Position numbers and translations under genes: made by a program. 64,000 bases of DNA, taken from assembly GCA_001771135.1 (NCBI GenBank), contig MESW01000007.1:3563-67562 (forward strand), read 5' to 3'. Below the pieces are notes generated by a model. The model worked only from the letters and a program-made list of their open reading frames with translations, searched no databases and was not told the origin of the DNA. Numbering within the stretch: position 1 is the first letter of the stretch; the number at the start of each line of letters is the position of its first letter. Shown here in pieces: positions 1 to 3,852 of the stretch. The DNA comes from a candidate division CPR3 bacterium GWF2_35_18 (GTDB taxonomy: Bacteria; Patescibacteriota; CPR3; GWF2-35-18).

Positions 1-781
1 TTCCTATAATAAATTCATTTAGAAACCATTCATTATCAAATTTTCTAATAGATTGAGGAAGAACGTTTCCAAGGTTTTCATTAACGATAAGTTCATCTAA
101 TTTCCGACCGAAAATATCGTAAATTTCAATTTTTCCTGTTGGTTTCAGGTGAATTTCTCCAGTGTTACGAAATCTGGTTACAAAATTTACTGGAGGATAG
201 TTATATAGGCCTTTATCTACGGAAAACTCGATTATTGATCCTTGTTCTGTTGTTTCGCCTGCGATTTGACCAAGAATTATTGGACCTATCTGAGAAGCAA
301 TCTGAATATTTGAAGTCTCTAATAGGTTATTAGGTTGTGTGCTAAACAATATTCCCGCATAATATCCGCCTGCTTCAGCATTTTCTGGAACAGAAACACT
401 AAAATTTACTGCAATTTTTCCTTTTGGTTCAAGGGTAATACCTTTTTTACTGATATTAATCCATTTAGCTAGGGAGTATGTTTCATCACTTTTCTCTGGC
501 AGTATAAACTCTTCAGCGCCTTTTTCTCCTTTAGGAACAAAGGAGTATACGATAGGATAATATGTTTGAGTTTTATCTCCAGTATTTTCGAGTTTGATAA
601 TTTCTTGATTAGATAAACCTTTTTCTAAAGATAATTCAAAAATTGGAGGAGAGATTCGAAGTCCGGTTGCGGTATCAGAAACTTGATTTTCAGCATGTAT
701 CTCAATTGTAAGAGTTGGGTATATAAATAAAAAAAGAAGGATAATACTAAGAATTTGTGTTTTTATTTGAGACAGTTTCAT
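1..781 (-). CDS. Secreted cell-surface protein, C-terminus beyond window (DUF916-like fold suspected); ATG at 781..779, ORF open to position 1
   Basis: Own translation of minus strand: MKLSQIKTQILSIILLFLFIYPTLTIEIHAENQVSDTATGLRISPPIFELSLEKG...; N-terminal signal peptide then beta-rich T/S/N-rich sequence; not in ORF track because no stop in window. Confidence 0.45.
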   Translation of the reverse strand, partial: MKLSQIKTQILSIILLFLFIYPTLTIEIHAENQVSDTATGLRISPPIFELSLEKGLSNQEIIKLENTGDKTQTYYPIVYSFVPKGEKGAEEFILPEKSDETYSLAKWINISKKGITLEPKGKIAVNFSVSVPENAEAGGYYAGILFSTQPNNLLETSNIQIASQIGPIILGQIAGETTEQGSIIEFSVDKGLYNYPPVNFVTRFRNTGEIHLKPTGKIEIYDIFGRKLDELIVNENLGNVLPQSIRKFDNEWFLNEFIIG

Positions 782-799
782 AAAATCGTTTGTTAATAG

Positions 800-1867
800 T
801 TAAAAACTTGCAGTAACAATTATAGTTGCTGTGTGGTTGTAGCTTCCTGCAGTGGTAGTTCCAGTAATTGAGGCTGCATGACATAATGTTGTAGAATCAC
901 CGTTTACTGGTGTATTAGCATTAGCAAATTGTTGTGCGCTATTGGTAATAGCTGAAGCGGGTTGAGGATTAGAAGCTGGGTCAGTACAGGTTGTGTACTG
1001 AACAATTGTTTGAGTTGCTTTACTTGTTGCAACTCCATATTCTTCGCTTCCTTGATCAATATCATTGTCTAATTCCACATCATCAATATCAATAGTTCCA
1101 TTTCGAAGATTTCCATCATCAAGGATTGTTGAAACATATCCATTTGCAGCATTCGTTGATACGGAGATGTTATATTGACAAGTTTCTATTGTTGATAAAG
1201 AAAGTGTTCCTAGTGTGCATGTGGTTGAAGAAATAGTTACATCAAGAGTTGGATCAACAGAAGCGGTGATTGTAATCTGATCACTGGTTAAGATATCTAT
1301 GGCAAATGTTCCAGTGTCAGCAGCAGCAGTAATATTAATAAGATAAGTATTAGCGCTCGGATTCGTTACTCTATTTGTTCCTCCTGAAGCAGCAGTCCCA
1401 TATTCGACATTTACTGTTACATTAGTGTTACTAGAAGTGAAAGTAGGACATGCTAATAAAGTAACAACACCAGTTGTGTCATTTATTCCAATGGAGATAT
1501 CATTGACTCCGGTAGATCCAGTACAATCGGTTGAAGTTCCGGTATTATAAACTACTCTTTCGGTTCCATCGTTAATATCAAAATCAGTAATCGTAGATGT
1601 TTCTCCATCAACCATAAATGCTCCACTATCTTCATTGAAATCAATTGCAATTGTTTCTCCTGCATCCCAGGTAGTAGTTGTTCCGAGAGTAAACAGAATA
1701 TCATGAGAAGATGTTTGACTTGCTTGAATTCTTGTCATTGTATCGGATATAGAAGTTAGATTGGCTGCAGCTACTTGTAACTTAAAGTTCTTTAGAACTG
1801 GTAATGATAAGGTAAAGATTGTAGCAAAGAGTAACGAAGAAAAAGAGAGGAGTCTTGATGTATTCAT
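800..1867 (-). CDS. Secreted Thr/Ser/Asn-rich surface protein (signal peptide, beta-rich)
   Basis: ORF track 355 aa; N-terminal hydrophobic signal MNTSRLLSFSSLLFATIFTLSLPV; extreme T/S/N/G/D composition, no TM after signal. Confidence 0.5.
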   Translation of the reverse strand: MNTSRLLSFSSLLFATIFTLSLPVLKNFKLQVAAANLTSISDTMTRIQASQTSSHDILFTLGTTTTWDAGETIAIDFNEDSGAFMVDGETSTITDFDINDGTERVVYNTGTSTDCTGSTGVNDISIGINDTTGVVTLLACPTFTSSNTNVTVNVEYGTAASGGTNRVTNPSANTYLINITAAADTGTFAIDILTSDQITITASVDPTLDVTISSTTCTLGTLSLSTIETCQYNISVSTNAANGYVSTILDDGNLRNGTIDIDDVELDNDIDQGSEEYGVATSKATQTIVQYTTCTDPASNPQPASAITNSAQQFANANTPVNGDSTTLCHAASITGTTTAGSYNHTATIIVTASF

Positions 1868-2009
1868 ATATAAAAACTTTTTATGTTAACAAAATAATAA
1901 TAACATTAATTTAGAAGATCACTTTACTATTGTCAACAAAAATATTAAATTATAAATAGCAGAATTATCTCAATATTTTAGCCTAATAATAAAAATGGAG
2001 AAGAGTAAA

Positions 2010-2975
2010 TTATCGTTGTAATGGAGAGTAAGATCTTCTGTTCTTAAAAATTATAATAGTTACTAGAAAGAAGAAAAGAGTTAGTATTAAAATCAGAAGG
2101 TAAAAATCAATATAAATAAAGTATATTGGAACGCTATTTAGTTCTAATAAATTCACAGTAGAGGTTGAAGGATACTTTATTTTTGCTTCTGCCTTAAATA
2201 TTCCAAATAACGTTTCTGGATACCATGTGAGATAGGGATATTTATCTGTTTGGGTGGTGTTAAAAATCTGTCTAGATGAATGAGCGAGTACATTTTGAGG
2301 TAAGAGATTTTCTTTAGTGATTTGTTTTGTAATAAGATTTTGAATCTCGATATATCCTGAAGATTTGAATAATAAATCACCCGTGTTTTCTAATACCAAA
2401 TCAAAGTTAATCGGCTTTTGAGAATTGAAGAAATTCGTATTAAAGCTACTAATTTTTCCGTTTCTTGCGGATGGTTTACTAATATCTTCTATAGTTAAAA
2501 GAACCGGAGATTGAATTTCACCACTTAAAATATTACCTGTTTGATTATTTTCTATTTCTTTTGAAGAAACTGATGTTACAAAGTAGTAATCTTTTAGTTC
2601 GACTTCTATTGGGACGTTAATTTTCATTTGAACGGAAATGATTTCTTTATCATTATTAAAATATATTTCAGTTTTAGAATAGTCAATCCAGTCCAAAAAA
2701 TCAGGCGTTTCGTTTAGTGATTTTAAGTTACCAATTTTGTCTTTTGGAATAAATGCTTTAGGTTGTATGATATATTCAATGTTCTTACTTCCAGAAACCT
2801 TGTATTCATAATTAAACTGAGATCCAGGTTTTATTTCTATCTGCAAAAGCATAGGATCTATTTGAAAATTTATTTGTTCTGCCTTTATTGGATTATTTGT
2901 TGCCATGAAGATATAACAAGCTATCGTTAGCATAAAGATAGCGAAGATGATAGATGGGGTTTTATATCTTTTCAT
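2010..2975 (-). CDS. Surface protein with N-terminal signal peptide and C-terminal TM anchor (DUF916/DUF3324-like architecture)
   Basis: ORF track 321 aa; signal MKRYKTPSIIFAIFMLTIACYIFMA; C-terminal hydrophobic segment LLILILTLFFFLVTIIIF followed by basic KNRRSY tail. Confidence 0.45.
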   Translation of the reverse strand: MKRYKTPSIIFAIFMLTIACYIFMATNNPIKAEQINFQIDPMLLQIEIKPGSQFNYEYKVSGSKNIEYIIQPKAFIPKDKIGNLKSLNETPDFLDWIDYSKTEIYFNNDKEIISVQMKINVPIEVELKDYYFVTSVSSKEIENNQTGNILSGEIQSPVLLTIEDISKPSARNGKISSFNTNFFNSQKPINFDLVLENTGDLLFKSSGYIEIQNLITKQITKENLLPQNVLAHSSRQIFNTTQTDKYPYLTWYPETLFGIFKAEAKIKYPSTSTVNLLELNSVPIYFIYIDFYLLILILTLFFFLVTIIIFKNRRSYSPLQR

Positions 2976-2987
2976 AGTAGTTTAAAG

Positions 2988-3716
2988 TTAAAATGTTCCG
3001 GTACAGATATATTTAATTCTATTCTGGTATGTCCCTGATTCTTGAGTAGCTCCAATATTAATTTTATATGTTACCTGAACTTCTGATCCTTGTGTTATCC
3101 CGATATTATTCATAACTATCTGTTCCGGTTCACTGTTTGATTCATCTGAAAACTGTTTATATCCGGAGGTAAATTCCGCATCTGTTCCTGTTATATTAGC
3201 CAAAGTATAACCAAATCCATAGGTAGTATTTATATTCCAATCTCCATTATTAAGATATGTAATGTCTAAATTATCTCCTCTAGTGTCTTCGATATATGTT
3301 CCCGGGTAAGCGAGATTATCTAATTGATTATTTTCAGAAGCAGTGACTTGATACCCATGCGCAGCACCACTTGTTACTATAAGGTTGGTGGTATCAGTTT
3401 TTGGAGTGTCTATAGATAAAGTTCCAAAATCAATAGCACTATTTGAAATAGTGAAAGTAAAGGGAATAATTGAGTAAAGATATTCGAAACCAATCATTGC
3501 TTTAAAACCATCTGATTCATATAATCCTGGGGCTATTTGTCCTCCAGTATCAACAAGGCTATAGTTATCTGAACTTTTTTGTCCGGCAAAGTCATTTAAA
3601 TTTCCCCAGTCTAATCTAAAATTTTCACTTTGAGCTTCAAACGCTTTTGCCCGTTTGAAAGAGAAAATAAATATGAAAGCTAATAGTAGGATAAAAATTA
3701 AGACCTTTTTTTGCAT
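2988..3716 (-). CDS. Secreted beta-rich surface protein (possible WxL-type partner of the anchored proteins)
   Basis: ORF track 242 aa; signal MQKKVLIFILLLAFIFIFSF; T/S/G/N/Y rich; 12-nt spacing to upstream gene suggests operon. Confidence 0.4.
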   Translation of the reverse strand: MQKKVLIFILLLAFIFIFSFKRAKAFEAQSENFRLDWGNLNDFAGQKSSDNYSLVDTGGQIAPGLYESDGFKAMIGFEYLYSIIPFTFTISNSAIDFGTLSIDTPKTDTTNLIVTSGAAHGYQVTASENNQLDNLAYPGTYIEDTRGDNLDITYLNNGDWNINTTYGFGYTLANITGTDAEFTSGYKQFSDESNSEPEQIVMNNIGITQGSEVQVTYKINIGATQESGTYQNRIKYICTGTF

Positions 3717-3852
3717 ACACTTAGTATCGATTATTCAAAAATTACTGTCAAGACAACTGAACTATTTAGTTTTAAAGTTATTTTTACTCTCGCACAATTA
3801 ACAATAAAATGTTAAAATTGGTATCGTTGAATTTTTAGTATTAAAGTTAATT

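Follow-up and report, generated by a model that had tools for sequence, protein, structure and literature searches.

What does a bacterium of the candidate phyla radiation (CPR) build from four secreted proteins, of which two are anchored in the membrane and two are not? This question is raised by a cluster of four open reading frames (ORFs), named ORF4, ORF3, ORF2 and ORF1 in transcription order, which occupies positions 1..3716 on the minus strand of a 64,000-nucleotide (nt) stretch of contig MESW01000007.1 (hereafter the window) from GWF2_35_18, a bacterium of candidate division CPR3. An initial annotation had read the cluster as a surface complex of the WxL/DUF916/DUF3324 type, in which anchored DUF916 proteins are paired with WxL partners. 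Our best reading is a compact locus in which a gene for the tip subunit (ORF4) is followed by those for a chaperone (ORF3), the major pilin (ORF2) and another chaperone (ORF1), and we consider it likely, with a probability of roughly 80%, that the cluster forms the core of a pilus locus of the Pam type and is a divergent member of the CPR Pam system. The Pam pilus of Ca. Mycosynbacter amalyticus has been described as a CPR-specific pilus that is built by donor-strand exchange and uses neither an usher nor a sortase (Troman et al. 2026; preprint 10.64898/2026.03.03.709456).

Two pilin-like proteins and a conserved interdomain linker

The four ORFs are genuine genes and not chance reading frames, since database homologues number more than 130 for ORF2 and 74 for the family of the anchored proteins, and since AlphaFold models of ORF2 and ORF3 reach predicted local distance difference test (pLDDT) values of 95 and 90. 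Their coordinates and the intergenic gaps of 12 nt (ORF4/ORF3), 142 nt (ORF3/ORF2) and 18 nt (ORF2/ORF1) agree with the initial annotation, as do the signal peptides, which are predicted for all four proteins from a basic n-region followed by a hydrophobic h-region and by a cleavage-type site rich in Ala, with modelled N-terminal helices at residues 6-26 of ORF2 and 7-26 of ORF3. The richness of the two anchorless proteins in Thr, Ser, Asn and Gly was likewise borne out, as these residues make up 43.4% of ORF2, the highest share among the 51 window ORFs of at least 150 amino acids (aa; median 22.7%), and 35.1% of ORF4. A search with the family profiles found no further paralogues of the cluster proteins elsewhere in the window.

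ORF2 is modelled as two beta domains joined by an unpaired linker, and comprises a signal peptide (residues ~1-35), an N-terminal beta-sandwich (~36-193), the linker (194-207) and a C-terminal pilin domain (208-355). It thereby resembles PamA and PamB as a signal-peptide-bearing pilin whose two domains are joined by a conserved linker and whose C-terminal domain is immunoglobulin (Ig)-like and truncated; in the cryo-electron microscopy structures of PamA and PamB, an N-terminal beta-sandwich is followed by a single linker strand and by a truncated Ig-like C-terminal domain that takes the linker of the neighbouring subunit (10.64898/2026.03.03.709456). The NCBIfam models NF058581 (CPR_Pam_pilin_C) and NF058579 (CPR_pilus_PamT) both derive from the M. 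amalyticus Pam pilus, and the former matches ORF2 as a distant relative, not as an equivalog (E 2.3e-12), together with 93 of 116 ORF2 homologues (best E 4.7e-35). A Pfam scan of ORF2 and ORF4 gave no match. Further, three pairs of cysteines covary in the ORF2 family, including Cys 217/230, of which both are present in 67 sequences, neither in 49 and a single one in none, and paired cysteines are also described for PamA and PamB (10.64898/2026.03.03.709456).

Residues 196-205 of the linker (DQITITASVD) form the most conserved 10-residue window among 116 ORF2-family sequences, and no other stretch was conserved well enough to serve as the seed of a genome scan. The ORF2 family is thus most conserved in the element that is the donated strand in the Pam preprint, and in the monomer model of ORF2 this element is left unpaired. 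Sequence searches of the PDB with the single cluster proteins returned nothing useful. The ORF2-family profile found its best PDB sequence match, which was non-significant, in the fusion protein 2hb0, over a segment (NITVTASVDPVIDL) that we take to be the donor strand of CfaB fused to CfaE. The ORF2 linker ITITASVDP is nearly identical to ITVTASVDP, the N-terminal donor strand of CfaB, which is the major subunit of a class-5 fimbria; this likeness of two short sequences could have arisen convergently or else point to a deep homology with the alternate chaperone-usher family.

ORF4 is close in length to the 241-position PamT profile NF058579, which it matches with an E of 1.6e-12 over profile positions 4-127, and it is also matched by NF058581 (E 9.6e-9) and by the ORF2-family profile (E 2.6e-17). 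Following the signal peptide, it consists of an N-terminal segment, in which an S-x-N-[YF]-x-L-like repeat occurs three times, and of one domain of the pilin C-terminal type, and is thus a single-domain protein of the length of PamT. This C-terminal domain, with 26% identity, is all that ORF4 shares with ORF2, and the donor-linker motif is absent from ORF4. In PamT-like proteins in general, the signal peptide is followed by three S-[ST]-N-[YF]-x-L repeats, and in ORF4 (residues ~26-82, window 3470..3641) these read SENFRL, SDNYSL and SDGFKA; such N-terminal repeats might self-complement or form an adhesive tip. A phage origin of ORF4 was also considered and was rejected, as no match was found among phage genomes.

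Anchored proteins related to WxLIP

With 26% identity over 256 residues (E 6e-12), ORF1 and ORF3 are paralogues, and they match the profile of their family with E values of 7.7e-82 and 9.8e-53, respectively. In the AlphaFold model of ORF3 (pLDDT 90.1, predicted template-modelling score 0.80), the signal helix (7-26) is followed by two beta-sandwich, Ig-like domains (38-162 and 173-289) and by a C-terminal transmembrane helix (291-314), which agrees with the membrane anchor and basic tail that had been read from the sequence of this protein. A C-terminal hydrophobic helix is present in 96 of the 100 full-length members of the anchored family. Two Ig-like domains with a C-terminal transmembrane helix liken ORF3 and ORF1, by description, to PamC and PamD, which are PapD/FimC-like proteins with such a helix (10.64898/2026.03.03.709456). 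When the ORF3 model was searched against the PDB with Foldseek, the top three matches were WxLIP structures (Enterococcus faecium 9i1y/9i25, E 3e-9), with a structural alignment covering both domains; these were followed by CfaA, a class-5 fimbrial chaperone, and then by CsuC, EcpB, FimC and Caf1M, and RbmA was also present.

The proposal that ORF1 and ORF3 are DUF916-like held at the level of the family, but less well for the single proteins. The profile PF06030 (DUF916) remained below threshold for ORF1 (24.8 bits, cut-off 27.3; E 2.4e-5), and ORF3 alone had no Pfam match, so its assignment relies on its paralogy to ORF1 and on the profile and structure comparisons. PF06030 is, however, matched by 44 of 94 anchored-family members (best E 3.1e-11), and one Saccharimonadia homologue has been named 'DUF916 domain-containing protein' by NCBI. 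The best PDB sequence match of the anchored-family profile was EfmWxLIP1 (9i25_C/9i1y_A, E 2.2e-5). Additionally, we aligned the CPR family by hhalign with eight proteins from Firmicute plasmids annotated as 'DUF916 and DUF3324 domain-containing' (WxLIPs), which gave a probability of 99.2% over the full length (E 2.2e-19, 262 columns) and of 98.3% for the DUF916 domain alone (E 2.6e-14). The DUF3324 domain alone was recovered as a weak match (34.8%, E 4e-4), crossed-domain controls giving 0.6-0.7%, and PF11797 (DUF3324) had no match in the cluster proteins or in 94 anchored-family members. The motif NQIDKxxxYFDLK, which lies near the N-terminus of the PGBD in WxLIP, is absent; the aligned CPR segment reads ISPxxxExxxxPG (ISPPIFELSLEKG in ORF1) and keeps the xFxL...PG part alone. 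Judged by profiles and modelled folds, ORF1 and ORF3 are members of the WxLIP superfamily, and this placement is secure for the first domain and suggestive for the second.

The likeness to the WxL clusters of Firmicutes goes beyond this family relationship. The anchored proteins are built alike there, with DUF916, a second domain and a transmembrane helix in 320-340 aa, and the Firmicute loci share the order of small partner, anchored WxLIP and large partner with the cluster described here. The small WxL proteins (~230-240 aa) match ORF4 in size, and WxLIP is predicted to lend one of its own strands to fill a gap in the WxL beta-sandwich (PMC10599100). All of this, together with an end-to-end but non-significant hhalign alignment of the pilin C-terminal domain with the WxL domain that pairs topologically equivalent motifs, could be taken to favour a WxL-type surface complex, in which anchored WxLIP-like proteins would hold non-polymerising partners by completing a beta-sandwich with one strand and no fibre would be formed. 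The partner proteins make this explanation improbable. PF13731 (WxL) has no match in ORF2, ORF4 or the 116 homologues, Pfam and NCBIfam scans of all four cluster proteins returned neither WxL nor DUF3324, and there is no W-x-L motif in ORF2 or ORF4. Nine Firmicute plasmid loci were collected, seven of which supplied ten small WxL proteins and two large ones; hhalign comparisons of such WxL proteins, or of the WxL domain alone, with the PamT-like family, the full pilin family and a profile of the C-terminal domain only were non-significant (probabilities of 4.4%, 1.5% and 0.6%). We therefore rejected ORF2 and ORF4 as WxL proteins; they match the CPR Pam pilin models instead. The WxL proteins are also described as peptidoglycan-bound and not as fibres. 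Of the complex that was first proposed, the anchored DUF916/WxLIP relatives and the gene order thus stand, whereas the WxL partners do not and DUF3324 is weakly recovered. The initial annotation had named a pilin-type fold with no DUF916 or WxL profile match as the outcome that would speak against it, and what we found lies halfway: the anchorless proteins are pilin-like, and DUF916 matches exist.

The two systems may also be joined in one tentative reading, possible although we do not favour it, according to which the CPR Pam pilus and the Firmicute WxL clusters would represent two branches of a single, ancient system of monoderms. In that case, an anchored protein with two Ig-like domains (WxLIP, equated with PamC/PamD) would chaperone small and large partners by strand complementation, acceptor domains of the pilin type would have diverged into the WxL domains, and short assemblies built by strand exchange might be formed from WxL proteins. 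Such kinship is suggested because of the predicted strand completion by WxLIP and the shared gene order. WxLIP may then be a chaperone that is tethered in the membrane of the bacterium itself, as opposed to the proposed insertion into a host membrane. The anchored components are homologous, whereas hhalign gave no significant match for the partners.

As for the Pam-type pilus itself, the fold of its putative chaperones recalls chaperone-usher pili, such as class 5 CFA/I with CfaA and CfaB and the archaic Csu system. The resemblance is one of folds, and there are clear differences, namely that there is no usher and no outer membrane, that the chaperone is membrane-anchored, and that the donor strand would lie internally between two domains and not at the N-terminus. 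A classical chaperone-usher pilus, or alternatively a sortase-assembled Gram-positive pilus, is accordingly an explanation to which we give almost no credence: the locus has no usher-like gene, the Pfam models of ushers and of PapD (PF00345/PF02753) match neither the cluster proteins nor 94 family members, no LPxTG occurs in the four proteins, no sortase was seen among the adjacent genes examined, and the chaperone-like proteins carry a transmembrane anchor. To our knowledge, CPR cells have no outer membrane, which also counts against a classical chaperone-usher pilus.

A probable pilus locus widespread in Patescibacteria

The genome scan, seeded with the linker from 28 closer ORF2 relatives, returned 80 related loci, spanning Woykebacteria, Saccharibacteria, Falkowbacteria, Doudnabacteria, Nomurabacteria, Berkelbacteria, WWE3 and others. 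The commonest pattern among them is a pilin gene followed by an ORF1-like gene, which is present almost wherever the sequence extends, and this pair of pilin and anchored protein is often preceded by a PamT-like gene, so that homologues of ORF4 lie directly upstream of the pilin gene in many CPR loci. The module had been called unexpected in this genome, a view that does not hold given its spread in Patescibacteria and the guanine-plus-cytosine content of the cluster region, which is similar to that of the remaining window. The conserved pairing also bears on whether the proteins could be unrelated secreted adhesins or S-layer-like envelope proteins with Ig-like folds, the anchored ones being adhesins or enzyme-less scaffolds such as RbmA and not chaperones. 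This is very unlikely, as the template-modelling scores to adhesins are 0.2-0.27 and as it would leave unexplained the NCBIfam Pam matches, the pairing with a chaperone-like gene and the conserved linker.

Most of the 80 loci bear Patescibacteria names, and a few are labelled Gammaproteobacteria or Nanoarchaeia. The latter records (L009, L010, L013, L027, L034, L040, L048 and others) are titled 'uncultured Gammaproteobacteria bacterium' or 'Candidatus Nanoarchaeia archaeon' and have Woykebacteria-like pilus genes; because of this resemblance, they are probably mislabelled CPR bins. If the labels were genuine, the pilus system would not be exclusive to CPR. In Saccharibacteria, the module is expanded, in loci such as L030, L049, L063 and L066, to a pilin, a chaperone, a second subunit of ~370 aa and two more chaperone paralogues (P-C-T-C-C), and this suggests that the multi-pilin pam operon of M. 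amalyticus was produced by lineage-specific duplication of subunit-chaperone pairs.

Following the Pam work and the biology of chaperone-usher pili, which guide our view of polymerisation, chaperone activity, assembly order and host attachment, we infer the following mode of action. All four products would be exported by Sec, and ORF3 and ORF1 would be held in the cytoplasmic membrane by their C-terminal helix, where they would act as two-Ig-domain chaperones capping the incomplete Ig-like C-terminal domain of the subunits. ORF4 would start the fibre at its tip, because it has an acceptor domain and no donor linker. Copies of ORF2 would then be added, each placing its interdomain linker (DQITITASVDP) in the C-terminal domain of the subunit before it, so that assembly would take place at the cytoplasmic membrane by donor-strand exchange, with neither usher nor sortase; the architecture of the modelled proteins points to a filament of this kind. 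The fibre would probably mediate contact with a host cell, and in this regard the surface attachment module that had been suggested for the cluster is retained, its role in host contact being argued by analogy.

The cluster agrees with the Pam system not only in the architecture of its proteins, but also in the paired cysteines, the CPR host and the absence of usher and sortase. It differs in having one major pilin gene instead of PamA, PamB and PamE, in its gene order (T-C-P-C) and in its host, as CPR3 lies outside the two classes highlighted by the preprint. Several points weigh against our reading. ORF2 stays under the curated cut-off of NF058581 (47.2 vs 55 bits), and so does ORF4 (35.5 vs 55 bits), which is also far under that of NF058579 (47.3 vs 240 bits) and is hence PamT-like and not an equivalog. 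No PamR-like or PamE-like gene was recognised at the locus, where the next gene encodes a lineage-specific protein with TSP3 repeats, and ATP-synthase genes, which are reported near pam operons, are absent from the 13 kb to the right, the left side ending with the contig. The comparison with PamA-E, PamT and PamR of M. amalyticus went through the NCBIfam models and the description in the preprint, strand donation is deduced from a monomer model, and the Pam work is a preprint with a largely AlphaFold-based assembly model. Because of the scores below the NCBIfam cut-offs, the lack of a recognisable PamR or PamE and the missing ATP-synthase neighbourhood, we file the locus as a divergent member of the Pam system and not as an equivalog.

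Locus features, neighbouring genes and implications

Table 1. Features of the pilus-like cluster, given as positions in the window
Feature	Position	Strand	Description
ORF4	2988..3716	-	242 aa; PamT-like tip/initiator subunit (putative)
ORF3	2010..2975	-	321 aa; membrane-anchored two-Ig-domain protein, read as PamC/PamD-like chaperone, WxLIP superfamily
ORF2	800..1867	-	355 aa; putative major two-domain pilin, PamA/PamB-like
ORF1	1..781	-	partial in window (N-terminal 260 aa out of 334); anchored and chaperone-like, WxLIP superfamily
ORF3 C-terminal transmembrane helix and basic stop-transfer tail	2034..2105	-	FYLLILILTLFFFLVTIIIFKNRR; modelled helix 291-314
ORF2 interdomain linker, putative donor strand	1247..1288	-	TSDQITITASVDPT
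Promoter-like site before ORF4	3723..3751	-	TTGACA, 17 nt spacer, GATACT; 10/12 match
Promoter-like site in the 142-nt gap before ORF2	1908..1936	-	TTGACA, 17 nt spacer, TAAATT; 10/12 match

On the minus strand, the two larger intergenic gaps, before ORF4 and before ORF2, contain the best promoter-like matches, each with a perfect TTGACA (Table 1). As the regional total of such sites does not exceed the shuffled expectation, their positions are a hint only, one that would be consistent with two transcription units for the cluster and suggests that the major subunit ORF2 may have a promoter of its own. The database entry for ORF3 (307 aa) begins 14 codons downstream of the ATG at 2975, so that the extra part corresponds to 2934..2975 of the window; the deposited start is probably too short, because with the longer form the signal peptide gains a proper basic n-region. 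ORF3 has an identical counterpart in candidate division CPR3 bacterium RIFOXYB2_FULL_35_8, where it is called a hypothetical protein.

To the right of the cluster lie genes for Obg, LeuRS, ComEA, ComEC, an MBL-fold protein, an acetyltransferase and a lyase. The left side was extended from longer copies of the same contig (L001-L004), from which the full-length ORF1 was recovered (L001:12153-13157); as the initial annotation had advised extending the contig leftwards, it could be seen that this protein of 334 aa ends, beyond the left edge of the window, in a transmembrane helix and basic tail. The next gene after ORF1 (L001:13186-14652) is on the same strand and encodes a secreted protein of 488 aa with bacterial thrombospondin-type-3 (TSP3, Ca-binding) repeats, a transmembrane helix at its C-terminus and a basic tail. 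It has weak NCBIfam similarity to MtsD, to CglD and to the Amuc_1099 pilus-like family, lacks a homologue in any of the other 80 loci, and could be a lineage-specific pilus anchor or adhesin. We also considered this protein as a PamR-like terminator, as its segment NNIRINAIVPE looks linker-like by eye, but a position-specific scoring matrix built from the linker found no signal and the candidate was rejected.

Further to the left, a gene running off the contig (L001:14971-16823) encodes a protein whose length is 617 aa or more and which combines a XerC/D-type Phage_int_SAM domain at the N-terminus with a transmembrane segment and a long exterior part rich in Gly, Thr and Ser. Around a dozen of the other loci have a homologue of this protein (up to ~2,400 aa) beside their pilus genes, in most cases downstream of them. 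The protein probably corresponds to the 'tail fibre-like protein' that, according to the Pam preprint, adjoins pam operons (10.64898/2026.03.03.709456). The joining of a DNA-binding-type domain to a surface fibre in one protein is odd.

Our literature search found no paper tying DUF916 to Patescibacteria and, except for one general review, none tying WxL to donor strands, and WxL, DUF916 and CFA/I are not mentioned in the Pam preprint (10.64898/2026.03.03.709456). The link of the Pam-type anchored proteins to the WxLIP superfamily, which emerges from the profile and structure comparisons, is thus absent from that work and is reported here. CPR bacteria are believed to rely on being physically attached to host cells, a contact for which the Pam pilus has newly been recognised as a candidate. 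The locus described here would represent a compact form of it in CPR3, with a tip subunit, one major pilin and two chaperones, which the curated models miss at their cut-offs, and the pair of pilin and anchored protein is found across many lineages of Patescibacteria. As the Pam 'chaperones' would be homologous to the WxLIP/DUF916 proteins of enterococci, listeriae and lactobacilli, the system gains an evolutionary anchor in monoderm bacteria. In turn, the poorly understood and virulence-associated WxL clusters gain a testable model, in which a membrane-tethered chaperone would act by strand complementation.

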